DNA of 64,000 nucleotides from NCBI GenBank assembly GCA_963776915.1, contig CAVZPE010000008.1, positions 321,780-385,779 on the forward strand, written 5' to 3'. Shown here in pieces: positions 1,018-47,486 of this stretch. The notes beneath the pieces are model-generated. The model saw only the letters and a list, made by a program, of their open reading frames with translations, searched no databases and was not told the DNA's origin. The translations under genes and the position numbers were made by a program. The stretch comes from an uncultured Acidobacteriota bacterium (lineage in GTDB: Bacteria > Acidobacteriota > Thermoanaerobaculia > UBA5066). Position 1 is the first letter of the stretch, and the number at the start of each line of letters is the position of its first letter.

Positions 1018-1051
1018 GCCGCGACGATACCCCGGCGCTAAGATCGCGCGC

Positions 1052-3235
1052 ATGTCGGCCACGAAATCGGATCTCTTCCTGGGCCGGGCCGTCGACCCCG
1101 GGACGGGGAAGACGGGCGCGGACGCATTCCGCCTCGACCCGTCCGACCTGACGACGCACGGCCTGATCGTGGGCATGACGGGCAGCGGCAAGACCGCGCT
1201 GGGCATCGTCCTCATCGAGGAGCTCCTCCAGCGCGGGATCCCGGTCCTCGCCGTGGACCCCAAGGGCGACCTCGGCAACCTGCTCCTCGACTTCCCGACC
1301 CTTTCACCGGACGAGTTCGCGCCGTTCGTCGACCCCTCCGCCGGCACGCCGGAGTCCGAGGCGAAGAGGTGGAGCGAAGGCCTGGCCGGCTGGGGCCTCG
1401 GCCCGGCCGACGTGAAGGCTCTGCTCGCGAGCCGCGACGCCGTCGTCTACACGCCCGGCTCCACGGCCGGCGTCCCGCTGGACCTGTTCGGCGCGTGCGC
1501 CGCGCCCGCCGAGGGCGCGGACGAGGAGGACGGCCGCGACCTCGTGAGCTCCTGGGTCGGCGGACTCCTCGGCCTCGCGGGACGCGACGCCGATCCCGTG
1601 AAGTCGCGCGACTTCGTCTTCCTCGCCGCCTGCGTGGACGCGCTCTGGTCGGACGGGAAGACGGCCACGCTCGAGGCGCTCCTCGAGACCGCGTCGGCCC
1701 CTCCGTTCGCGAAGGTCGGCGCGCTCTCCCTCGACACGTTCTTTCCCGCGAAGGACCGCCAGGGTCTCGTCCTGGCGCTGAACGGCCTGCTCGCGTCGCC
1801 TGCGACGGCCGCGTTCCGGCAGGGCGACGCGGTCGACGTCGGCCGCATGCTCGCGCCCGCGAGGGACGGCAGGGCGCGGCTCTCGATCGTCTCGATCGCG
1901 CACCTCGGCGACGCCGAGCGCCTGTTCGTCGTCGCGACGCTCCTCGCGCGCGTCAAGGCGTGGATGCGGACGCTCCCCGGCAGCCCCGCGCTGCGCGCTC
2001 TCGTCTACGTCGACGAGATCTTCGGCTTCTTCCCGCCCTCGGCCGAGCCGCCGACGAAGAAGCCGCTCCTGACGCTCCTCAAGCAGGCGCGCGCGTTCGG
2101 CGTCGGCGTCGTTCTCGCGTCGCAGAACCCCGTCGACCTCGACTACCGGGGCCTCGCGAACTGCGGCTGCTGGTGGGTCGGCACGCTGCAGACCGAGCGC
2201 GACCGCAATCGTCTCGGCGAGGGGCTCGTCGAGGCCGGGGGGAAGGACGCGTCCGCGCTCCTCGACAAGACGAGGAAGCGCGTCTTCCTCCTGCACGACG
2301 TCCACCGCAAGGAGCCGGCCCTCGTCGAGACGCGGTGGGCGATGAGCTACCTGCGCGGCCCGATGACGAAGTCCGACCTCGCGCGGCTGCGCGGCTCCGC
2401 GCCGCAGGGGGCGAAGAAAGCGGACGCGGCGTCCGCGCCCGCGGGCTCCGCTCCGCCGCCGCTCCCGCCCGAGTGGCCGTCGCGCTGGGTCGAGAAGCGC
2501 GGCGCAGACCTGGCGTCGGCGGCGCTCTACGTGAGGTACGCCGTGCGCTACAAGACCGCGAAGGGCACGTCGCCCGAGGCGCAGGGCGTCAAGCTCTTTC
2601 CGCTGTCGGCCGCCACGGCCGCCGACGTCCTCGAGGGCGACGCGACCGACGTGAAGCCGGAGAGCCTGCTCGAGAAGGCGCCGCGCGCGCTGCGCTACCC
2701 GGACCTGCCCTCGTGGGTGGGCCCGGCGGGCGTGAAGGCGGCGGAGAAGGCCGTGCGCTCGCGCCTCCCGGACAAGCTCGCGACGACGCTCCTGCGCGAC
2801 CCGGTCACGGGAGCGCTCTCGCTTCCCGGCGAGTCGGCCGCCGACTTCGCGGCGCGCGCCGCGGCGGGGTCCGAGCCGCCGGCCGCTCTGCGCGAGAGGC
2901 TCGAGAAGAAGAAGCGCGACCTCGCCGCGGCCGAGAGCGTCGAGCAGGGAAGAGCGATGGAGACGTACGCCTCGATCGGCACGGCCGCCCTCGACGTCCT
3001 CGGCGGGTTCCTCGGGAAGAGAAAGACGATCCGCGTGAGCAAGGTCGGGTCCGTCCTGACGAAGAAGCGCATGGAGGGCACCGCCGAGGCGAGGGTCGAG
3101 GGCCTCAAGGCCGAGATCGCCGAGCTCGAGGCCAAGCTCGCGCCGCCGGACGCGACCCGGTTCGAGAAGGTCGAGGTCGTCCCGAGCGCGTCGAGCGTCG
3201 ACGTCCTCTCGATCGGCGTGGCCTGGGTCTGCTGA
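1052..3235 (+). CDS. HerA/FtsK-like P-loop ATPase (DUF87/COG0433 type) with a long coiled-coil C-terminal region
   Basis: Start ATG at 1052 (MSATKSDLFLGR...). Walker A is GMTGSGKTALG, followed by VDPKGDLGNL. Walker B-like is ALVYVDEIFGFFP, then ARAFGVGVVLASQNPVDLDY. The C-terminus carries LEKKKRDLAAAE...EGLKAEIAELEAKL. Confidence 0.8.
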   Translation: MSATKSDLFLGRAVDPGTGKTGADAFRLDPSDLTTHGLIVGMTGSGKTALGIVLIEELLQRGIPVLAVDPKGDLGNLLLDFPTLSPDEFAPFVDPSAGTPESEAKRWSEGLAGWGLGPADVKALLASRDAVVYTPGSTAGVPLDLFGACAAPAEGADEEDGRDLVSSWVGGLLGLAGRDADPVKSRDFVFLAACVDALWSDGKTATLEALLETASAPPFAKVGALSLDTFFPAKDRQGLVLALNGLLASPATAAFRQGDAVDVGRMLAPARDGRARLSIVSIAHLGDAERLFVVATLLARVKAWMRTLPGSPALRALVYVDEIFGFFPPSAEPPTKKPLLTLLKQARAFGVGVVLASQNPVDLDYRGLANCGCWWVGTLQTERDRNRLGEGLVEAGGKDASALLDKTRKRVFLLHDVHRKEPALVETRWAMSYLRGPMTKSDLARLRGSAPQGAKKADAASAPAGSAPPPLPPEWPSRWVEKRGADLASAALYVRYAVRYKTAKGTSPEAQGVKLFPLSAATAADVLEGDATDVKPESLLEKAPRALRYPDLPSWVGPAGVKAAEKAVRSRLPDKLATTLLRDPVTGALSLPGESAADFAARAAAGSEPPAALRERLEKKKRDLAAAESVEQGRAMETYASIGTAALDVLGGFLGKRKTIRVSKVGSVLTKKRMEGTAEARVEGLKAEIAELEAKLAPPDATRFEKVEVVPSASSVDVLSIGVAWVC

Positions 3236-3399
3236 AGAGAAGAAGAGAGAAAGAGGAAGATTTTCTTAGAAGGTGAAGAGGGGCTGGGCAAGCGCGGGCG
3301 CCGCACGGTGCGGCGCCGCGGCCGCCCGCCGCCTCATTCACCTTCTAAGAAATCTTCTCTTCTCTTCTCCTTCGGTCTCTCTTTCTCTACAATCTCCCC
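3236..3399. repeat. AT/purine-rich long imperfect palindrome, copy 1 (left arm 3236-3283, GC-rich loop 3284-3331, right arm 3332-3399)
   Basis: The left arm ...GAAGATTTTCTTAGAAGGTGAAGAGGGG pairs with the right arm CCTCATTCACCTTCTAAGAAATCTTC (about 24 of 27 bp). The pairing extends into a 26-nt pure purine run and matching pyrimidine runs. The loop holds its own perfect hairpin, GGCGCCGCA-CGG-TGCGGCGCC. The element lies exactly between the HerA-like stop codon and the next start codon. Confidence 0.75.
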
Positions 3400-3783
3400 A
3401 TGCCGAAGATTCCTCCCCGCGAGTCCGTTCGCGAGCACCCGCTCTACCGCGCCGCGATGGCGGCGCAGCACGCCGCCTACCAGCTCATGCGGGACGTGCC
3501 CGCGTCCGCGAAGGCGGACGCGACGCGCCTCGTCGGCGCGCTCGTCCACGCGGGGACGTGGGCGACGGCGATCGTGGACTCCGACGTCGCCGAGAAGGAC
3601 AGGGCCGCAGCGCGCGCGGCGCTCGCGGAGTCGACCGCGCAGGCGCAGGAGATGCTCGCGCCGCTCGCGCCGTTTGCGAACGACGCGGGGATCGTGGACA
3701 CGCTGGAGAAAGAGATAGGAAAGATAGAAGAGCTTAGAAAGGTTCAGAGCGAGGCGGAGCAACGGACCGAACCGGCCGCATGA
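3400..3783 (+). CDS. hypothetical helical protein (possibly four-helix-bundle-like); the C-terminal ~25 aa are encoded by palindrome copy 2
   Basis: 127-aa ORF with strong G/C third-position bias through about nt 3700. From there the tail switches to A/T-ending codons (aaa ata gga ata gaa ctt aga gtt) where the repeat arm begins. There is no SD; TACAAT lies 6 nt upstream of the ATG. Confidence 0.55.
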   Translation: MPKIPPRESVREHPLYRAAMAAQHAAYQLMRDVPASAKADATRLVGALVHAGTWATAIVDSDVAEKDRAAARAALAESTAQAQEMLAPLAPFANDAGIVDTLEKEIGKIEELRKVQSEAEQRTEPAA

Positions 3784-3827
3784 ATTCCCGCGGCCCTCTT
3801 CACCTTCCAAGAAAAAGCGCCTTTCCC
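3705..3827. repeat. AT/purine-rich imperfect palindrome, copy 2 (left arm 3705-3754 inside the ORF tail, right arm 3794-3827 after the stop)
   Basis: The left arm is GGAGAAAGAGATAGGAAAGATAGAAGAGCTTAGAAAGGTTCAGAGCGAGG. The right arm is CCCTCTTCACCTTCCAAGAAAAAGCGCC, whose reverse complement is ..TTTTTCTTGGAAGGTGAAGAGGG. It has the same core as copy 1. CCAAGAAA (3806-3813) can also pair with TTTCTTGG (3873-3880). Confidence 0.65.
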
Positions 3828-3862
3828 GTCTGTGCCGAAGGCAGGTCGACGCGCGAGGGAGC

Positions 3863-4207
3863 CTATTCTTCTTTCTTGGTCCCCAGCACCACGAGGACGA
3901 TCAGGAGCAGGAGGACGATGAGGCCGATGACGATCGTCGTCGTGCGCGACGAGCCGGCGGGCGGCTCGGGCGCGGGCGCCTCGGCCTTCGCGGGAGCGGC
4001 GGCGGTCGTGGCCGGCGCGGCGGATGCCGTCGTCGCGGGCGCGGGCGCGGCCGTGTCGGGTGCCGTGGCGGTCGTCGCGGGCGCGGCGGTGCCGGTCGCG
4101 GCGGCGGCGGCCGGCGCGGCGGGGCTCGCCGTCGACTGGGCGAAACCGGCGGACGCGGCGAGAAGGATCACGGCGAGGACGGCGGTGAGCGCGGAGCGAC
4201 GTTTCAT
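3863..4207 (-). CDS. secreted Ala/Pro/Thr-rich low-complexity protein with a C-terminal membrane anchor
   Basis: The N-terminal signal peptide is MKRRSALTAVLAVILLAASAGFAQS. About 60 aa of A/P/T repeats follow, then PEPPAGSSRTTT, the hydrophobic helix IVIGLIVLLLLIVLVVLG and KKEE. Confidence 0.55.
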   Translation of the reverse strand: MKRRSALTAVLAVILLAASAGFAQSTASPAAPAAAAATGTAAPATTATAPDTAAPAPATTASAAPATTAAAPAKAEAPAPEPPAGSSRTTTIVIGLIVLLLLIVLVVLGTKKEE

Positions 4208-4261: not shown

Positions 4262-5795
4262 ATGAACCGGGCCCGCGACCTCCTGCGCCTCGACGCGGCG
4301 GTCTTCCTCTCGGGCGCCGCCCTCATGGGCCTCGAGATCGTCGGCAGCCGCGTCCTGGCGCCCGTCTTCGGGACCTCCCTCTTCGTGTGGGGCGCGCTCA
4401 TCACGACGTTTCTCGCGGCCCTGGCGGCGGGCTATGCGCTCGGCGGCCGCCTCGCGGACCGCCGTCCCGACCCGTCGCTTCTGGCCGGCGTGCTCGTCGC
4501 CGCCGGCGCCCTCGTGATCGTCCTCTTCGCGGCGCCCGACTTCGTCCTCGCGGCGGCCAGCGCCGCGCCCGTGCCGGACCGCTTCCGGGCGCTCCTCGCG
4601 GCGGTCGTGCTGTTCGGCCCTCCGAGCGTCCTCATGGGCGCCGTGACGCCCTTCGCGGTGCGGCTCGCCGCGAAGGAGCTCGCGCTCGTCGGTTCGGCGG
4701 CGGGGCGGCTCTCGGCCGTCTCGACGACGGGCTCCATCCTCGGGGCGTTCTCGACGGCCTTCTTCCTGATTCCGACGTTCGCGACGCGCCCGATCCTCTT
4801 CGGGCTCGGCGCCTCGCTCCTCGCCGCGGCGCTCCTGATCCCCGCGCCGAAGGCGCTCCGGCGCCTCGCCTTCGTGGCCTTCGTGGGGACCGGCGCCGCG
4901 CTCGTGTTCCTCGTCGGGCCGGGCATCGCGAAGCCGGCCGCTCCGGCGGGGACGCTCGTCTTCGAGAAGGAGACGGCCTACCACCACATCCGCGTCGTGG
5001 ACCAGGGCCTGCGCCGCGCCCTCTACTTCGACAACCGGATGCAGGGCTACGCCCCCGTGAGGGAGGGGGTCTCGCTCGCGCTGAACTACACGGACGGCCT
5101 GGCGCTCTCCCTCGCGTTCGCGCCGCGCGCCCGGCGCGTCGTCGTGATCGGCCTCGGGGCGGGCATGTTCCCGACGCTCCTCTCCCGGCGCGCGCCCGAG
5201 GTCGAGACGACGTCCATCGAGATCGACCCGGAGGTCGTGGCCGTCGCGCGGAAGTACTTCGCCTTCGCCCCGGACGCGAACGACCGCGTCCTCGTGGGCG
5301 ACGGACGGCGCGAGCTCGGCCGCCAGGTGGACGGCGCGGACGTCATCATCGTGGACGCCTACTTCTCCGACAGCCTGCCGTTCCACCTCGTCACGAAGGA
5401 GTTCGACGAGCTCTGCGCGGAGAAGCTGGGACCCGACGGCGTCGTCGCCGTGAACTTCGGGGGCGAGCTGACGGGCAACCGGAACCAGCTCTTCTGGGCG
5501 GCCCTGCGGACTCTCGGCGAGGTCTTCCCGCGCGTCTACGTCTTCTCGGCCGAGCTGAAGGCCGGCGACCGCGCCGTTCAAGTCGACCGCGATCGTGATC
5601 GCGACGCGCTCACCCGAGCGCCTCGACCCCGGGACGCTCGCCGACCGCGCCCGCGCCGTCGCCGCGCGCATGGGGCGGCCCCCGATCGAGGAATGGGCGG
5701 GCCGGCTCTACGAGGGCGAGCTCCGGATCGGGGACGTCCCGGTCCTGACGGACGCCTACAGCCCGACGGACGCGCTCCAGCACCTGGCGCGATGA
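4262..5795 (+). CDS. fused membrane / spermidine-synthase-like protein (one frameshift near 5575)
   Basis: The N-terminus is polytopic (LSGAALMGLEIVGSRVLAPVFGTSLFVWGALITTFLAALAAGY...). A class I methyltransferase/spermidine-synthase-like domain follows (VVVIGLGAGMFP...EIDPEVVAVARKYF...IIVDAY). The C-terminus continues in the frame of track ORF 5595..5795. Removing one C around 5574-5575 joins ...AGDRA to FKSTAIVIATRSPERLD. Confidence 0.8.
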
Positions 5796-6739
5796 GGAGG
5801 CTCGCCGCGGCCGCGTTCGCGCTCCTCGCGCCGGCCTGCGCGAAGCCCCCCGCGCCTCCTCTGGCGGCGCGCCTCGCGGCGCGGGCGGAGGCGTCCCCGT
5901 CCGTCGAGGCCGACGCGCGCGCCCTCGCGGCCCTCGGGGCGCGCGTGACGGGCAGCGCCGCGTGCGCGAAGGGCGAGGAGCTCGTCGCCGCACGCCTGAG
6001 GTCCGCCAATCTCGCGCCCGTCTTCGAGACGTATCCGCGGCCGGCCGGCGCCGCCTCCGACGCCCCCGCGCGCAACATCTTCGCGGACATCCCCGGGACG
6101 GACACGACGCGCGGCCTCGTCCTCCTCGCGGCGCACCTCGACGGCGTCGCCGTGGGGGAGGGCGCGGCCGACGACGCCGTCAACGTCGCGGTGCTTCTCG
6201 AGGCCGCGCGCACCCTCAGGGCCTTCGCTCCCGCTCCGCGCCGCACGATCCGCTTCGCGTTCTTCACGGGCGAGGAGCAGAAGATGGCGGGCTCGTCGGC
6301 CTACGTGGCGGCCCACGCGGAGGAGGAGCCTCACGCCCTCGCCGCGGTCTTCGACCTCGGGTCCGGGCGGACGAAGGGCTTCTACATGAACGGGCGCAAG
6401 CAGGAGATGCGCGCCCTCTTCCAGCGCGCCCTCGCGCCCGACGCGAGGTGGCGGGCGGTGTTCGGGTCGTACGGGATCTGGGCGGGCTGCGACGCCCTTC
6501 CGTTCGTGAAGGCCGGAATCCCGGCCCTGACCGCGTTCCAGGTCGACCCGGGCTACGCGGCCCTGCACCACACGGCCGCCGACACCGCCGACCGGCTGGA
6601 CTTCGCGGCGGCGCGGGAGACCGCGGCGCTCGCGGCGGCTCTCGCCTGGGGGGCGGCGGACGACCCCGCACCCGACCTGCCGCGGATGACGCCGGAGCAG
6701 GTCGCCGAGCTTCTGAAGAGGTGGGGCATCCCGCCCTAG
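5792..6739 (+). CDS. M28 family metallopeptidase (aminopeptidase), lipoprotein-type signal
   Basis: The ATG at 5792 overlaps the upstream stop (ATGA). The N-terminus is MRRLAAAAFALLAPAC. Metal-ligand context: LLAAHLDGV, GAADDAVNVAVLLEAAR, FFTGEEQKMAGS, ALHHTAADT. This gene forms the C-terminal part of the chimeric track ORF 4262..6739. Confidence 0.85.
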   Translation: MRRLAAAAFALLAPACAKPPAPPLAARLAARAEASPSVEADARALAALGARVTGSAACAKGEELVAARLRSANLAPVFETYPRPAGAASDAPARNIFADIPGTDTTRGLVLLAAHLDGVAVGEGAADDAVNVAVLLEAARTLRAFAPAPRRTIRFAFFTGEEQKMAGSSAYVAAHAEEEPHALAAVFDLGSGRTKGFYMNGRKQEMRALFQRALAPDARWRAVFGSYGIWAGCDALPFVKAGIPALTAFQVDPGYAALHHTAADTADRLDFAAARETAALAAALAWGAADDPAPDLPRMTPEQVAELLKRWGIPP

Positions 6740-6755: not shown

Positions 6756-7121
6756 TCAGTGGGTCGTCTCGCCCGTCCGGCTCGACCGGAGAGCCACGAT
6801 CTCCGCTTTCAGGCTTTCCAGGTCCTCGAGGAGGCCCTGGAGGTCGCTCCGGGGGATCGAGTCGAGGGACGGCTCGGACGTGAGCAGGCGCTGGACCTCG
6901 TCCAGCTTGACCTCGGCCAGGGCCAGAGCCTCCCCGACGTCCTTCCCGGACATGTCGAGGTAGGCCTCTCCGACGAGCGAGGGCACCGAAACGGCCGCCT
7001 TCCGGAGTCGGATCCCGGCTTCCGTACCCTTGGCCCCCGCCGCCTCCACGGCCGCGTAGACCGTGTGGGCGAGGGTCATCCCCCTCTTCCAGAGCGGGAG
7101 GTTCTTGTAGTCGCCGCCCAT
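6756..7121 (-). CDS. four-helix-bundle protein (TIGR02436 / 23S rRNA intervening-sequence protein-like family)
   Basis: 121 aa. The N-terminal DYKNLPLWKRGMTLAHTVYAAV matches the Y-K-x-L-x-x-W-x-x-A/G signature of this family, and a helical repeat pattern runs to the end. Confidence 0.7.
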   Translation of the reverse strand: MGGDYKNLPLWKRGMTLAHTVYAAVEAAGAKGTEAGIRLRKAAVSVPSLVGEAYLDMSGKDVGEALALAEVKLDEVQRLLTSEPSLDSIPRSDLQGLLEDLESLKAEIVALRSSRTGETTH

Positions 7122-17573: not shown

Positions 17574-18442
17574 CTAGATCGACCGGGAGCGCGCCTCGCG
17601 CTCCGCGGCTTCGGCCTCCTCGGAGGCCTTGCGCGCGGATGCGAGAGCGGCTTCGGCTTCGCCTCTTCGGCAGCGGCTGCGGCGAGCGCCTCCTCGAGCG
17701 ACTTCCTCCGGCGCCGGCTCGCCTCGACCGCCTTCTCGGCGTCGATCCGGAGCGCGCGCGCCACTCCGCGCCTCGTTCTTCCAGTGCTGCAACGCGCTTC
17801 TCGTCGTCGCGCCGCCGCTTCTCGTTCGAGCGCGCGTTCGCGCGCAGGATTCTTCTTCGAAGAAATTTTCGGCGGTTCGATGGCGGCGTCTTCACGGACA
17901 GCGAGGGAGTCGACACGGTGCGCCGGGCCGCCGGAACGACCGCCGCCGAGGAGACCGAGCGAGGCGACCTCGTCGAAACCCGGGGCCGGGACGTCCTCGG
18001 CCAGGCGACCGGCGACGGGCCCGCCGCGCCCGCTGCCGTAGGTCGCGATCGCCTCGAGCGTGGCCGAGATGCGGCGCGACGACGTCGGGGCTCGTCGCGC
18101 GACCCGCGCCCGAGACGGCGCGCTCGGCGGCCTTCACGGCCTCGTTCAGCGCTTCGCGCCGCGTGCGCATCGCCTCCTTCACGTCGGAGGGATTCGTCCG
18201 CGAAGGCGGTCGCCCGCGGCGATGAGGGCGTCGAGGAGGCGGGGCGAGGAGAAGGCGATCTGATTGACCGCCCACGCCGCGGCCGAGGGCTTCGCGAGCG
18301 CCTTCACCCGCGCGGCGTCGTCCTTGCGGCCCGCCGCGCCGAGATTCTTCGAGAGCGCGTTGCGCGCCTCCACGAAGTCCGCCAGAGGTGCGGCGTAGAG
18401 CGCGTCCAGCTGCGCCTCGAGGTCGTCACCGGCCCTCGCCAT
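17574..18442 (-). CDS. hypothetical protein with coiled-coil C-terminus, broken by about 5 frameshifts
   Basis: The N-terminus is MARAGDDLEAQLDALYAAPLADFVEARNALSKNLGAAGRKDDAARVKALAKPSAAAWAVNQIAF. It continues in other frames as TNPSDVKEAMRTRREALNEAVKAAERAV.., ..RRISATLEAIATYGSG.., ..AEKAVEASRRRRKSLEEAL.. and ..ASARKASEEAEAAEREARSRSI. No function is recognised. Confidence 0.45.
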
Positions 18443-19474: not shown

Positions 19475-22400
19475 TCACCTCACCGGCATCGCCGGCCGTT
19501 TCGGCCTGACCGGCGGGTTCTTCTTCAGCTCCTCCATGACGATCGCGATCGCCTTCTCGAGCTGCGGGTCGTGGCCCGCGATGACGTCGGCGGGCGTCTG
19601 CTCGACCTCGACGTCGGGCGGGACGCCGACGTTCTCGACGCCGAAGCCCTCCTCCGGCGTCCAGAAGCCGAGGTTCGGCGCGGTGACGACCGCGCCGTCC
19701 ATGAGCGTCGGGAAGCCGAGGATGCCGACGAGGCCGCCCCACGTGCGTTCGCCCACGAGCGTCCCGACCTTGAAGTGCCGGAACATCCACGGCAGGAGGT
19801 CCCCACCGGAGCCGGCCGTCTCGTCGATGAGCATGACCTTCGGCCCCTGGATCGACGCCGACGGCGTCTTGAGGTCTTCGCCGTAGCGCATCGCCCACCA
19901 GGCGATCGGCTGGCGGGTCAGCGCCTCGATGTAGTAGTCCGCGACGCTGCCGCCGCCGTTGAAGCGCTCGTCCACGATGATCGCGTCCTTCGCGGCCTGC
20001 GGGTAGAAGTAGCGCTTGAAGTACGTGTGGCCGAGGCCCGCCGTGTTCGGGACGTAGACGTACGCGACGCGCCCGCCCGTCGCCGCGTCGACCTTCCGGA
20101 GGTTCCCTTCCACCCAGTCGCGGTTGCGGAGCTGGGCCTCGCTCGGCACGGGGACCACCGGGACCGTGCGGGAGCCCCTGCCGTCGGGATGGGGGCCGAC
20201 CGTGAGGTCGACGATCGTCCCGGCCGTCCTCTCGAAGCGGGAGTAGAGGTTCTCGGGCGGCGCGAGATCCCTGCCGTTCACGGCGAGGAGATACTCGCCC
20301 GCCTTCACCTCGACGCCCGGCTCGGAGAGCGGCGCGCGAAGCTCGGGGTTCCAGTTCAGGCCGCCGAACACCTTCTTGAAGCGGTAGCGGCCGTTCGCGA
20401 CCTCGTAGTCCGCGCCGAGGAGGCCGCCCGGCACCGGGGGCACCTCGAGAAACGACTCGCCGGGCGTGTTGCGGTGGTGGCCGACCGAGAGCTCGCTGCA
20501 CATCCACTGGATGAGGCGGTTGAGGTCGCCGCGCGACGAGAGGGCCGGCAGGAACGCCGCGTACTTCGCCTTCAGCGCGGGCCAGTCGTGCCCGTGCATC
20601 TTCGGGTCGTAGAAGTAGTCGCGGTTCACGCGCCAGGCCTCGTCGAAGATCTCGGGCCACTCGGCGCGCGGGTCCACGCGCACCGCGATCGCGTCGAGCT
20701 TCAGCTTGCCGCCGTCGTCCTTCGCGTCCGACTTCGCGTCGACCTTCCGGGGAGACGAGGCGACGATGGACCACGACTCCTTTCGCAGCGGCTCTCGCGA
20801 CGACTCGTTCAGCTTGAAGAGGATCTTCTTCCCGTCGAAAGAGACGAAGTAGTCGTCGGCCTCGGGGACCACCGTCACGGTCTTGCGGTCCCTGAAGTCG
20901 AAGCGCTGGACGGACGTCTTGCCGTCCGCGTGCCTCTCGAAGAAGAGCTGGCCCGCGCCGCCGGCCTGCAGGTTCGAGATCTCGGCGGGGTGCACGGGCA
21001 GGTCGACGATGCGGAGGTTGAAGCCGTCGAAGTCGATGACGACGGGTTCGGGCTTCTTCGGGTGCATGCCGCGGTCGCCCTTGCCGTCCGTCCGTGCGGC
21101 TGCGTCAACGCCCTTGGAATCGGCGGGGTGGCCACCCTTGCCGCCCTTCGAAGAATCTTCTTTCTCTTCTTCTCTTTCGTCTTCCTTCTTCCCGTCCTTC
21201 GCCGCGGCCGCGCCCTTCTCCTCGTCGCTCTCTTTCGCGAGCGGCGAGGGCGTGCCCTTCTTCAGCGTCGCGACGTAGATCGCGTTCGTGGTGCGCGCGT
21301 CCGCGTTCTGCAGCGAGAACCAGTTGCGCTGCGGGCCCGCGTCCGTGGAGGCGAGGAAGTAGAGGAGCTTGCCGTCCCTGTCGAAGGCGGGGTCGGAGAC
21401 GTCCGAGAGGCCGTCCGTGAGGGGGAACGAGCGGTCCTCCTCGACGGAGTAGACCCAGGCCGTGCGGATGTACGTCGGGCCGGAGAGCGTGTACGCGACC
21501 CAGCGCGAGTCCGGCGACCAGGACCCGCGCAGCATCCGCTGGCGGACCGGCGCGTAGAGGCGCTCGGACGCGATCTTCTTCGAGGCGCCGCTCGCGACGT
21601 CGACGATCCACAGGGTGAGGGAGTTGTCCGTGAGGACGATCTTCTTCCCGTCGGGGGAGAACGCGAGCGCGTCGTAGAAGCCGGCGCCGGGGACGTTGAT
21701 CCTCTTCGCGGCGCCTCTTCCGTCCTGCGCCCTCACGACGATCCGGTTCTCGCCGCCTTCGTCCGAGACGTACGCGATCGACTTGCCGTCCGGCGACCAC
21801 GCGGGCGCCGTCTCGTGGACGGCCGTCGTCTCCGTGAGGTTCCGGGCGTCGCCCTTCTCGGCGGGCACGGTCACGATCTCGCCCCGGAACTCGAACGCGG
21901 CCCGGGCGCCGGAGGGGGAGAGGGCCGCGCCGCGGATCCATTTCGCGCCCTTCGCCCAGCGCGGGCGCGTCTCGAGGAGGTCGCCCGCGACGGTGATCGC
22001 GAGGTCGGTCGTCTTCTTCGAGGCGACGTCGTACAGGTGGAGCGTCCCGGCCTGCTCGAAGACGATCCGGCCCTCGGCCGCCGCCGCGTTCAGCACGGGG
22101 AAGTCCGAGTAGCGGGTGAGGGGAGAGAGAGAAAGAGATTTCTTCGACGGGTCATGTGCGTCGGCCGTCTGGTCGAGAACGTAGAGATTGAACTCGCCGT
22201 CGCGATCGGACCTGAGGTACAGAGTGTGGCCGAGCCAGACGGGGTCGACGTCGTTGCAGCGCGTCGCGGGCTGCGGGACCTTCACGACCGCGTGCGACGC
22301 GACGTCGTAGAGCCAGATCGTCGAGACGAGGCCGCCGCGGTAGCGCTTCCACTGCAGGTGCGCCGGGTTGTTCGGGTTGTAGGCGATGGTCCGGCCGTCC

Positions 22401-44809: not shown

Positions 44810-44839
44810 CTTAAGGCGCGGGGCCGGAGATCCCCTGCG

Positions 44840-47486
44840 TCAGCGCGACGTCGGCGCCGCGGGCGCGTGCGGCGCGAGCCCGGAGCCCGCGCCGGCCGAC
44901 ACGAGGTTCACGAAGAACCGGTACGCGCCCGGGACGCCGGCCGGCAGCTGCCGGAAGAACGCGTAGCCCGTGTAGACGTACGCCCCCTTGCCGACCCTCG
45001 CGTAGAGGAGGCCGCCCTTCTTGTCGGTCTCGCCGGGGTCGTGCGACGCGATCGGGGTCTCGTACCGCGGGTCCCACGTGCCCGCGAAGTAGAGCCCGCG
45101 CTCCTGCACCCAGCCGTCGAAGTCGGCGGACGTGAGCCTGTTCGGGAAGTTCAGGAGGGGGCTGCCCGGCTCGAGGAACGTGACGGGGGCCTCCTCGACG
45201 GTCACGCGGTCGCGCGAGATCTTGAACGGGTACGGCCCGATCTCGTTCGTCACGAGGTCGCCCGTCGTGTCGTACTGGACGACGAGCGGTGCCGCCCTTC
45301 TCGGCGTACGCGAGGAGGCGGCCCTCGACCTGCTTCAGCCGCGGCCGCGTGTTGTACGCGCGGATGCCCGTCACGATCGCCGCGTAACGCGAGAGGTCGC
45401 CGGTCTCGAGGTCGTCGTCCGAGAGCAGCGTCACGGAGTACCCCATCTGCCGGAGCGCGTCGGGGCCCGCGTCGCCCGAGCCCATCACGTAGCCGATCGG
45501 CGCGCGCGGCGCCTTCACGTCGATGCGCAGGACGCGCGCCTCGGCGGGCGGGAACAGGGTCTGGAGCGGAATGTGGGGATAGTCGACGCGCACCACGGAA
45601 TGCGATTCCGTGCGCCCGGCGACCGTCGTCTCCGCCGAGAGCGTGCCGGAGGCCTGGCCCGGCGGCGGCGTCACCGTGAACGCCACGGGCTTCTCCTCGC
45701 CCTTGGCCGCGAGCTCGAACAGCACCTCGGCCGGGGTGACGTGGAACCCGGCGGGCGCCCGGAGGCGCACCGCGCCCGAGACCTTCGGCGCTCCCGCGAC
45801 GAGCGTGACGCGCACCGTCTTCGCGGCGCCGCTCCCGAACGCGTAGACCTTCTCGTCGAGGTTCGCCATGACGGGCGGGACGATCTCGAACGGGCTGTAC
45901 ACCTCGCCCCTCACGGGGTCGGTCCGGCGGAAGACGACGGGGGTCTCGAACGGGATCGTCACCCCCGCGACGCGCACGGCGAACCGCGCGACGAGCGGCG
46001 GCGCGTTCTCGGGCCGGCCGACGAGACGGGGATCCGGCACGGAGTAGAGGCCCTTGCCGGCGGGCGCGAGCAGCCAGTAAGGCTGCGTGGTGGCGGCGTC
46101 CGCCGGGAGCGCCACCGTCGCGGTCCCCCGCAGCGGCTCGTTCGGCGCGAGGGCGCCGCCCGGGAGCGGCGCGGCGACGCCGCCCTCGACCTCGACGTTC
46201 TCGAGCGACGCCGGGAAGGCCGAGCGGTTCAGGGCCATCGTCGCGACCTTGACCCCGGTGCCCGGCGCGGCCGAGACGTCGGCCGCGATCGCCTCCGTCC
46301 ACAGCCCGAGGCACGCCCGGATCGCCTCGGCGACCTCGGCGCGCTTGGCGGCGAGGAGGGGATCCGGGGAGGAAGACGACGCCGGATCGACGAGAGACGA
46401 GGATTCGGATTTCTTAGAAGGGGAAGAGGGGGAGGGCGGAGCGGCCTGCTGAGCCCCCGCCTCGAGCATCCGGCCGATCGCCGTCCACGCCTCCACGAGC
46501 CCCGGGACCGACGCCGCCGGGTCCGATTCGCGAAATCCTTCCTCCACCTTTCTAAGAATCTTTCCGATTTCTTCTCCCTCGGCTCCGTATCTCTTCCAGG
46601 AGAGATCGACGCCCTCGAAGAGGTCTTCCTTCGCCGGCTCGCCCGCGATCAGCTTGAAGTCGTTCAGCCAGACGCCGCGGCGCTCGGCGGCGCCGAAGCC
46701 CTGGCTCTTGTGCATGGAACGGCTCTGGCCGGCGATCTCGGTGTACGAGCGGCCGAGGAGCGCGTTGTAGCCGCCGAGGTCCACCGCGATCTCTCCCGGC
46801 GCCGGCGTCCGCGGGGCGTTTGGTCCGAAGCGGAAGACGTTCCAGAGGACCCGCTTCACCTGCCAGGGCCGGACCCACTGGAGCTGCTCGGGAAAGCGCT
46901 TCGGGTCGGCCGCGGCCGTGAACGCCTCGACCGCGAGGATCGCGGAGGCGGTGTGGTTGCCGTGGCCTCCCTCGCCGGTCGTCGGAAACCGCGTGACGAT
47001 CACGTCCGGCCGGAAGGAGCGGATGACCCAGACGACGTCGGAGAGGACCTGCTCGTGGCCCCAGATCGCGAACGTCTCCCCGGGGTTCTTCGAGTAGCCG
47101 AAGTCGATCGCCCGCGTGAAGAACTGCCGCGCGCCGTCGATCCGCCGCGCCGCGAGGAGCTCCTGCGTGCGCAGGACGCCGACGAGCTCGCCGGTCTCGT
47201 TCCCGATCAGGTTCTGGCCGCCGTCGCCGCGCGTGACGGAGAGATAACCCGTCTCGAGAAGGCGCCCCTTCGCGCCCCAGGCGAGGAAGGCCGAGTTCTC
47301 GTCGTCCGGGTGGGCCGCGAGGTAGAGCACGCTGCCGACGACGTTCAGCTTCTTCAGCTGGAGCGCGATCTCGGAGGCGCTGAGGTTCTCGGCGGGCGCG
47401 GCGGCCCGGGCCGGGCGCGCGGCGAGGGCGATCAGGGCGGCGAGGACGGGGAGGGCGCGGAGCAGGCGGCGCGTCATGCGCCGCAT
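44840..47486 (-). CDS. PIG-L/LmbE family deacetylase fused to a C-terminal ThuA/GATase1-like domain (one frameshift near 45285)
   Basis: A signal peptide is followed by LYLAAHPDDENSAFLAW...VTRGDGGQN...GHGNHTA (PIG-L motifs). The C-terminus continues in the frame of track ORF 44840..45253 (..VVQYDTTGDLVTNEIGPYPFKI...YVYTGYAFFRQLPAGVPGAYRFFVNL). Confidence 0.85.
46391..46582. repeat. AT/purine-rich imperfect palindrome, copy 3 (arms 46391-46436 and 46537-46582), inside the PIG-L gene
   Basis: The left arm is CGAGAGACGAGGATTCGGATTTCTTAGAAGGGGAAGAGGGGGAGGG. The reverse complement of the right arm is CCGAGGGAGAAGAAATCGGAAAGATTCTTAGAAAGGTGGAGGAAGG. The arms share ATCGGA..TTCTTAGAA..GG.G.AG. They are translated as EGEEIGKILRKVEEG and PPSPSSPSKKSESSSLV with A/T-ending codons. 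Confidence 0.7.

Follow-up and report, generated by a model that had tools for sequence, protein, structure and literature searches.

The 64,000-nt stretch of contig CAVZPE010000008.1 analysed here (the window, in whose coordinates all positions are given) comes from an uncultured bacterium of the acidobacteriotal class Thermoanaerobaculia and has a GC content of ~70%. Near one end of the window, a HerA-like ATPase gene is followed by an open reading frame (ORF) for a protein of 127 residues (ORF127; 3400–3783, + strand) and then by a convergent gene. Two AT-richer elements border ORF127, copy 1 at 3234–3390 and copy 2 at 3705–3827, and around this ORF the GC content falls to ≤45% over 40 nt only at 3223–3287, 3327–3397 and 3690–3755. 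All features listed in a preliminary description of this locus were found in the sequence where it had placed them, and copies 1 and 2 are indeed related members of one repeat family. The family is dispersed throughout the Thermoanaerobaculia, and its core is an oriented, strongly over-represented 12-nt word within a purine tract.

Copy 1 is a strong inverted repeat that spans the whole gap between the stop codon of the HerA-like gene (3233–3235) and the ATG at 3400, as had been described. Its 5' arm (3234–3284, +) consists of a polypurine tract (3234–3260), the box TTTCTTAGAAGG (3262–3273) and an inner extension TGAAGAGGGG. Its 3' arm (3333–3390, −) contains the extension, the box (3341–3352, −) and a polypyrimidine tract. 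The order along the copy is polypurine tract, box, GTGAAGAGG, GC-rich centre and mirror image, with the purine and pyrimidine tracts outermost and the GGTGAAGAGG end toward the loop. The 16-nt arms at 3262–3277 and 3337–3352 are 100% complementary. The interior (3285–3332) is unique and GC-rich, folds into a symmetric hairpin of its own (9-bp stem without mismatch, GGCGCCGCA/TGCGGCGCC) and has no paralog among the sequences compared. Relative to shuffled sequences, copy 1 folds very stably both as RNA (−98.4 kcal/mol, z = −6.9) and as DNA (−58.1 kcal/mol, z = −8.4). The 20-mer TTTCTTAGAAGGTGAAGAGG occurs at 3262–3281 (+), with 3 mismatches at 3333–3352 (−), and with 1 mismatch each at 3795–3814 (−) and 46410–46429 (+), where shuffled sequence gives an expectation of 0 matches. 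The last of these sites was absent from the preliminary description.

The view of copy 2 as a second inverted repeat held for its right arm but not for its left. The 3' arm (3794–3827, −) is well preserved and carries the box TTTCTTGGAAGG at 3803–3814 (−). The 5' arm (3705–3753, +), with LEKEIGKIEELRKVQS, is degenerate coding sequence within ORF127, in which native purine-rich codons (LEKRMEELR in relatives) were lengthened by AGAAAGGTTCAGAG. The interior (3754–3793) holds the ORF127 stop codon (3781–3783). Its only homologs are the loops at the orthologous site in three relatives (loci L087, L111 and L117), and our loop comparison bore out that it is unrelated to the loop of copy 1. Copy 2 also supplies the C-terminal extension of ORF127, whose last ~14 codons are missing from orthologs without copy 2. 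A further pair, CCAAGAAA/TTTCTTGG, had been thought to link copy 2 to the convergent gene. This pair is present, but it is the native pyrimidine-rich coding end of that gene and occurs also in element-free orthologs.

ORF127 encodes a conserved hypothetical protein of the Thermoanaerobaculia clade that belongs to no Pfam, NCBIfam or PADLOC family, and an exact-sequence look-up returned no record in the collection searched. We compared nine orthologous loci, and the neighbours of ORF127 were unchanged, whether an end had no arm, one arm or two. At the upstream end, three relatives with the HerA-like gene (L118, L111 and L115) carry the reverse arm alone after the HerA stop codon, relatives without HerA have no arm, and the full pair is found only in the window. 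The two arms of copy 1 were acquired sequentially. At the downstream end, the element is absent from three relatives, in which the ORF terminates with EELRA and the stop codon, and the convergent stop codons overlap. Two further relatives have a single short arm, and four loci including the window have the pair, with homologous interiors. Among these relatives, the elements show presence/absence polymorphism. Comparison of filled and empty sites of copy 2 showed no target-site duplication, and the left junction of this copy is fuzzy, lying within the native purine-rich codons. Since ORF127 keeps the same neighbours whatever the number of arms, it is an ordinary clade-specific gene rather than a cassette. 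Most family members, moreover, flank nothing gene-like and many lie inside ordinary genes, and the earlier proposal of mobile or recombinogenic hairpins on both sides of a small gene is not supported. As to the other earlier proposal, a bidirectional structured regulatory element of this locus, the family-wide distribution speaks for a function, if any, that is generic rather than specific to ORF127.

Further copies, whose absence would have spoken against the preliminary description, are numerous both in the same genome and in its relatives. An exact scan with the 20-mer over one genome per species gave at least 110 loci. About 100 of the matches listed lie in metagenome-assembled genomes (MAGs) of Thermoanaerobaculia/Acidobacteriota, and six matches in unrelated taxa look like chance matches. 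The former derive from ~30 independent MAGs of short-read and long-read projects, and an adapter or assembly artefact was rejected for this reason. Several matches are distributed over single Mb-scale contigs. A collection of 2.9 million viral contigs gave 3 hits only, and a phage origin was rejected. In the window, the 12-nt box TTTCTTNGAAGG occurs 7 times (4 exact, 3 with one mismatch) against 0.29 by chance. The window contains no Rfam hit at gathering threshold and no tRNA or tmRNA genes, and copy 1 gave just sub-threshold matches to generic miRNA-precursor hairpins in Rfam; a known RNA family was rejected on these grounds. A full-text literature search found nothing relevant for the core sequence or for repeats of Thermoanaerobaculia. 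This repeat, with many copies per genome in a class of uncultured soil and sediment bacteria, is apparently undescribed so far.

The repeated unit is one arm of ~45–50 nt, composed of a purine tract, (A/T)TTTCTTNGAAGG and a G/A-rich tract reaching ~15 nt inward. Measured on arms not chosen by the search pattern, the box shows 87–100% identity at positions 1–5 and 7–11, and its seventh base is free. Purines make up 65–95% over ~16 nt upstream of the box, and the two half-boxes were never found apart. In copy 1, the purine arm contains AGAAGGTGA (3268–3276 / 3337–3345, also in the family consensus), which but for one mismatch is fully complementary to the 16S rRNA 3' tail, and the pyrimidine arm contains TCACCTTCT, a mimic of that tail itself. 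For the tail we assume the sequence AGGAGGTGA, as a near-universal one rather than one read from the rRNA of Thermoanaerobaculia.

Arms are used mostly as convergent pairs of a single polarity, with a preferred span of ~86 nt and arbitrary interiors. Our set comprised 67 pairs from loci L001–L118 and the window; as the related loci were retrieved by the exact 20-mer, all figures on pairs are conditional on the presence of one consensus arm. A partner box (≤2 errors) was found within 350 nt downstream of 57 of the 100 testable exact arms and upstream of only 2, at a background rate of 7.6%. Likewise, adjacent hits of a hidden Markov model <300 nt apart were convergent in 53 cases and divergent in 3. 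Either strand therefore reads purine tract, box, interior, inverted box and pyrimidine tract, and the GG ends point toward each other. Among 946 loop pairs, similarity was seen in only 9, 8 of these 9 from orthologous loci, and four elements of one genome have the arms alone in common. The box-to-box span is 81–98 nt in 26 of the 67 pairs, with a sharp mode at 85–87 nt (13 pairs). A single pair has a span of 99–120 nt, and a broad class follows at 121–180 nt and beyond; helical phasing of the spacing was not significant. In the short class, about one third of the interiors are symmetric hairpins. The length constraint at 85–87 nt and the near-absence of spans of 99–120 nt hold even though the interiors are unrelated in sequence and often unstructured. 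Tandemly duplicated arms and solitary arms occur as well.

According to home-made gene calls from GC3 and GC1–GC2, which are crude, 21 of the 67 pairs lie at a gene 3' end (8.8 with random placement), 24 inside ORFs (41 with random placement) and 22 elsewhere. Intragenic arms use only the three stop-free frames, read as DFLEGEEG in the sense direction and as SSPSKK or PLHLLRN in the antisense direction. A protein-level motif was rejected, since the box is found outside coding sequence too and, on both strands, in three reading frames. A role of the arm as ribosome-binding site was rejected too, with start codons downstream of 6.4% of arms versus 7.3% of controls.

Arms were gained one at a time, either by short insertion into intergenic DNA, protein tails or linkers or by substitution in native codons, and some are conserved at orthologous sites. 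In-frame insertions are found in tails and linkers, including the N-terminus of a gamma-glutamyl-phosphate-reductase-like protein, the C-terminus of an ABC ATPase, a loop of DnaE2, the linker of a ComEA-like protein, an RNase R-like protein, the tail of a helicase and the tricorn protease; these identities were read from translations, not from family searches. In contrast to such insertions, both arms in IspE (two species) and in YciH/SUI1 align gap-free to residues that are structured in the solved E. coli proteins, with normal protein sequence between them. The arms in IspE and YciH are composed of codons uncommon at a genomic GC content of 70%. Rare codons are also used in the partner arms of IspE and of a PIG-L-family gene, where complementarity is kept via 1-nt bulges.

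The PIG-L-family gene, on the minus strand of the window, contains copy 3. Its consensus arm (46380–46431, +; box 46410–46421) is translated within the gene as PSPSSPSKKSE, and the box of this arm is invariant in four species amid a hypervariable, length-variable linker. The imperfect partner arm (46535–46585, −; CCACCTTTCTAAGAATC at 46544–46560) is native coding sequence (GEEIGKILRKVEEGF) that has been adapted to the box to a species-dependent degree. Three solitary arms complete the set in the window. Two lie in a tricorn-like protease gene: the arm at 21137–21200 (−; box ATTCTTCGAAGG at 21145–21156) encodes the low-complexity insert KKEDEREEEKEDSSKGG, and the arm at 22116–22152 (+; purine tract and TTTCTTCGACGG at 22139–22150) is translated from the minus strand as PSKKSLSLSP. 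The third, at 17843–17872 (−; TTTCTTCGAAGA at 17854–17865), is degenerate. Outside the window, a NagZ-like gene of two species (L078, 6220–6400; L081, 4740–4920) has an arm directly upstream of its start codon and an imperfect partner ~35 codons downstream, in sequence coding for GFLLFKRN. Judged from this arrangement, the pair may possibly form a translation-masking structure.

How could such pairs function? From the sequence patterns described above, we tentatively favour the reading that the arms of a pair anneal to each other in single-stranded nucleic acid and that a conserved host factor reads the box, the whole forming a REP/BIME-like gene-boundary structure. The arms would pair in transcripts or in transiently single-stranded DNA. 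With all-purine against all-pyrimidine arms, any arm could pair with any partner, and tracts of this kind would bring no stop codons into a gene. The observed polarity alone would ensure that, in the transcripts from either DNA strand, the 5' strand is rich in purines and the 3' strand in pyrimidines/U. The resulting geometry would be that of a bidirectional terminator or of a 3'-end-protecting stem-loop, and the element would act at gene boundaries, like REP/BIME units. Intragenic copies would be tolerated because translation melts the hairpins. An invariant box, in turn, implies a conserved host factor that reads it. Pairing of the arms accounts for the purine/pyrimidine design, the bulged complementary partners formed in situ, the scarcity of very short loops, the enrichment at 3' ends and the polarity.

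Several results weigh against this reading. Pairing leaves the 11 invariant nucleotides of the box unaccounted for, and also the cluster of spans at 85–87 nt, where only about one third of the interiors are structured. About one third of the pairs lie inside ORFs, and no reader protein for the box was found. The region of copy 2 folds no better than shuffled sequences (z = 0.05). For copy 3, the fold of minimum energy is indeed the predicted arm-to-arm hairpin, but this copy did not fold significantly better than shuffles. No covariation of partner arms was detected at variable positions or in either flank. Folding in sense versus antisense orientation gave 21 versus 25 (p = 0.73), a comparison with crude gene calls and low power. 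A consensus scan flagged no canonical terminators at the elements, which lack the GC-rich stem followed by a U tract of intrinsic terminators. Their terminator-like features are confined to the purine-5'/pyrimidine-3' polarity and the 3'-end enrichment.

Duplex energies help to interpret the lack of covariation. The duplex energy was −37.6 kcal/mol for arms with their own partner, −38.1 kcal/mol with the partners of other elements and −24.5 kcal/mol with random genomic segments. Own and foreign partners being nearly equal, complementarity is generic to the family, and a purine-against-pyrimidine design renders arms complementary without co-evolution. As there is no excess complementarity with the own partner, an origin by inverted duplication was rejected, and so was selected covariation between arms. 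The duplex energies showed no sense/antisense asymmetry either and gave no support for selection on one RNA strand; strand-specific selection on RNA was not detected.

An alternative explanation, unlikely in our judgement and yet a close rival of arm pairing, is that a sequence-specific host protein recognises the box in double-stranded DNA, with pairs read jointly at a preferred distance. The reader might be a nucleoid-associated, roadblock, recombinase-like or domesticated transposase-like protein, the spacing of ~74 bp centre to centre would correspond to roughly seven helical turns, and the hairpin potential would be a by-product. Eleven invariant box positions with one free mid-position resemble protein–DNA contacts, and a duplex site would also explain why half-boxes never separate, why partners do not covary and why the RNA strands show no asymmetry. 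It would fit the sharp spacing mode despite unrelated, often unstructured interiors, and the birth of sites by substitution inside conserved proteins, as with known genome-wide words. Class-wide conservation likewise implies a conserved reader. However, no candidate protein was found, and the second, broad spacing class (121–180 nt and beyond) lacks significant helical phasing. Partners with 1-nt indels relative to the box would break a rigid site, the purine/pyrimidine tracts would need a separate explanation, and a 74-bp loop of GC-rich DNA would be very stiff.

It is less probable still that the family is a non-autonomous transposable element of the miniature inverted-repeat transposable element (MITE), foldback or Rickettsia-palindromic type, with arms serving as terminal inverted repeats (TIRs) and a transposase acting in trans. 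The TIR-like polarity with fixed outer and inner ends, the discrete length class of 81–98 nt, the insertion polymorphism among close relatives, the solo and tandem arms and the in-frame insertions in linkers and tails (e.g., in the proteins of L032, L033, L009 and L001) would all suit such an element. Yet, its interiors should be related, at least within one genome, and they are not. Filled and empty sites show no duplication, the arms of copy 1 were gained one after the other, and the arms in IspE and YciH lie gap-free on native structured residues with native sequence between them. Arm sequences conserved class-wide would also be unusual for a MITE. Where arms are 1–5 kb apart, only ordinary genes and no transposase lie between them, and a parent insertion sequence (IS) between distant arms was rejected for this reason. 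An empty-site palindrome with TA or YTAR duplication, in the style of IS630/IS5, was rejected as well, because no TTTCTTNAAGAAA sites exist and half-boxes never stand apart. A tblastn search of 0.9 Mb of box-bearing loci plus the window revealed a single Y1/RAYT-like gene, in L087, with 26-nt TIRs of its own. This argues against a transposase in trans, and REPINs driven by a RAYT were rejected, the one such gene in these sequences being a 'TIRtron' whose TIRs are unrelated to the arms.

We regard it as quite improbable that the box is a word resembling uptake signal sequences (USS) or DNA uptake sequences (DUS), enriched by biased uptake and recombination, with inverted pairs later recruited as terminators. 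In line with such a word, the box is oriented and over-represented >20-fold in the window (>1000-fold by our own base-composition estimate), conserved across the clade, substituted into conserved proteins using rare codons, and nearly absent from the viral contigs. USS and DUS occur about once per kb. The density of the box, however, is only ~1 per 9–16 kb, pairs outweigh single words even inside genes, and the spacing mode is not accounted for. Finally, a locus-specific device, be it an attC- or inverton-like cassette, an invertible segment or a dedicated regulator of ORF127, was suggested by two related inverted repeats around one small ORF and by the superficially attC-like variable interiors between conserved arms, but is highly improbable, since the synteny of ORF127 does not depend on arms, the family is dispersed rather than arrayed, and the interiors in IspE, YciH and PIG-L are essential native coding sequence. 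In all eight orthologous comparisons (8/8) the interior was collinear with its flanks, and an inversion switch was therefore rejected. The MITE, uptake-drive and locus-specific readings each fail at least one direct test.

Comparison with known repeats leads to a similar picture. The REP, BIME and REPIN elements of Proteobacteria consist of palindromic units tagged with GTAG or CGTC (PMC3733652; PMC3337134). Like them, the present family forms hundreds of short repeats per genome, mostly as inverted dimers that can fold into larger hairpins, with some copies in frame inside genes and a long vertical inheritance. A preference for positions 3' of genes and for junctions of unidirectional or convergent genes may be a further parallel, to judge from the crude gene calls. 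The family differs in that its unit is not palindromic by itself, with no usable stem inside the box TTTCTTNGAAGG, that the arm consensus carries neither a GTAG nor a CGTC tag, and that dimers have a single polarity only. Unlike in REPINs, the spacer is not homologous among copies, and no RAYT flanked by box repeats was found in the 0.9 Mb of loci and the window. Some copies, furthermore, were made by substitution within structured protein regions.

Rickettsia palindromic elements (RPE) also occur in frame inside unrelated genes as well as between genes, are tolerated at surfaces and in linkers, and are conserved at orthologous sites. In RPE, however, the whole ~100–150 bp is conserved and copies always arise by insertion (see also PMC3733652), whereas here the arms alone are conserved and some are not insertions. 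With the USS of Haemophilus and the DUS of Neisseria, the family shares an over-represented, oriented and clade-conserved word, its presence in coding DNA by substitution and fixed-polarity inverted pairs at gene ends; it differs by its at least 10 times lower density, the predominance of the pair also inside genes, the preferred spacing and the purine tracts. Similarly to MITEs such as the Correia elements of Neisseria, it has TIR-like arms (~20–45 nt), a discrete length class, insertion polymorphism and the capacity to form transcript hairpins. In contrast to MITEs, it has no target-site duplication, no common interior and no parent IS that we could find, and some of its arms evolved in situ.

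As in integron attC sites, conserved boxes are paired with fixed polarity around a centre variable in length and sequence, and a copy may overlap the 3' end of an ORF. Yet, the elements are not arrayed beside an integrase gene, the box is unrelated to RYYYAAC/GTTRRRY, and many copies reside in housekeeping genes. Inverton and shufflon segments differ by occurring in both orientations. The family fails the defining tests of REP/REPIN, MITE, RPE, USS/DUS, attC and invertons but partly resembles several of them, which agrees with the preliminary description in that it is not a REP, BIME, classical MITE or attC element.

The neighbourhood of copies 1 and 2 offers some additional observations. The hexamer TACAAT (3388–3393, +) stands 6 nt before the ATG of ORF127 (3388–3402) in all nine orthologs, and the block TTCTCTACAAT followed by 6–7 nt and ATG is conserved in all nine, with or without arms. 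TACAAT looks like a −10 box for a leaderless ORF127 mRNA. The HerA-like gene has a −10-like TAAGAT ending 6–7 nt before its ATG (1039–1054). Neither gene has a Shine-Dalgarno sequence, which, together with the position of these hexamers, suggests leaderless mRNAs for both.

The HerA-like ATPase gene (1052–3235; DUF87/HerA_C; PADLOC mad8, 2e-14) lies between a thioesterase gene and ORF127 and is variable among L111–L118 and L087. It constitutes a variable insertion, possibly with a role in defence, at a 35-nt divergent intergenic region. That it was carried as cargo of two arms was rejected, because its upstream boundary has no arm. At the equivalent spot (window ~1045–3390), L087 (MAG MFD04428.bin.1.167) has the 320-aa Y1/RAYT-like transposase gene (5700–6694; Pfam Y1_Tnp; NF047646, 97 bits). 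This gene ends in 26-nt inverted repeats GGGGTCAGGTCTGTGTTATGTGTTAT that are 96% complementary, lack the box and are unrelated to it, and are not repeated in the other sequences compared. The repeats carry the GGGGWSAS motif of the 'TIRtron/TIRYT' type described for Acidobacteria (PMC3733652).

Elsewhere in the window, the ORF of the PIG-L-family gene (44811–47486, −) has an apparent frameshift at ~45250–45330 leading into low-complexity nonsense, and the true C-terminus continues in another frame (44840–45253). The ORF at 4262–6739 shows the same pattern around 5595–5795. These frameshifts are either assembly indel errors or pseudogenes. Near the ORF127 locus, a 121-aa gene (6756–7121, −) without an adjoining box codes for a '23S rRNA intervening sequence protein' of the four-helix-bundle type (PF05635, 34.6 bits, barely over the family cut-off).

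Most interspersed bacterial repeats known to date come from Proteobacteria, Neisseria, Haemophilus and Rickettsia, and the family described here extends them to a little-studied and mostly uncultured class of Acidobacteriota. It unites features not known in combination elsewhere, namely repetition of the arms only, a fixed polarity, a preferred spacing and an origin by both insertion and codon substitution in conserved enzymes. For practical purposes, the box is a natural marker for binning and typing of Thermoanaerobaculia genomes, and the low-complexity inserts and C-terminal extensions produced by the arms may mislead gene callers and homology alignments in MAGs. If a specific reader exists, the box would provide a handle for a new nucleic-acid-binding system. 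A doubtful but far-reaching possibility is that the family represents a genome-wide signalling system of the Thermoanaerobaculia, in which an oriented 12-nt word is served by a dedicated clade-specific reader and perhaps a writer. Such a system may use convergent pairs with a ruler-like span of 85–87 nt around arbitrary sequence, under selection or drive that may suffice to overwrite structured codons of IspE and YciH. If true, it would constitute a new class beside REP–RAYT and uptake sequences, and a variant of neither.

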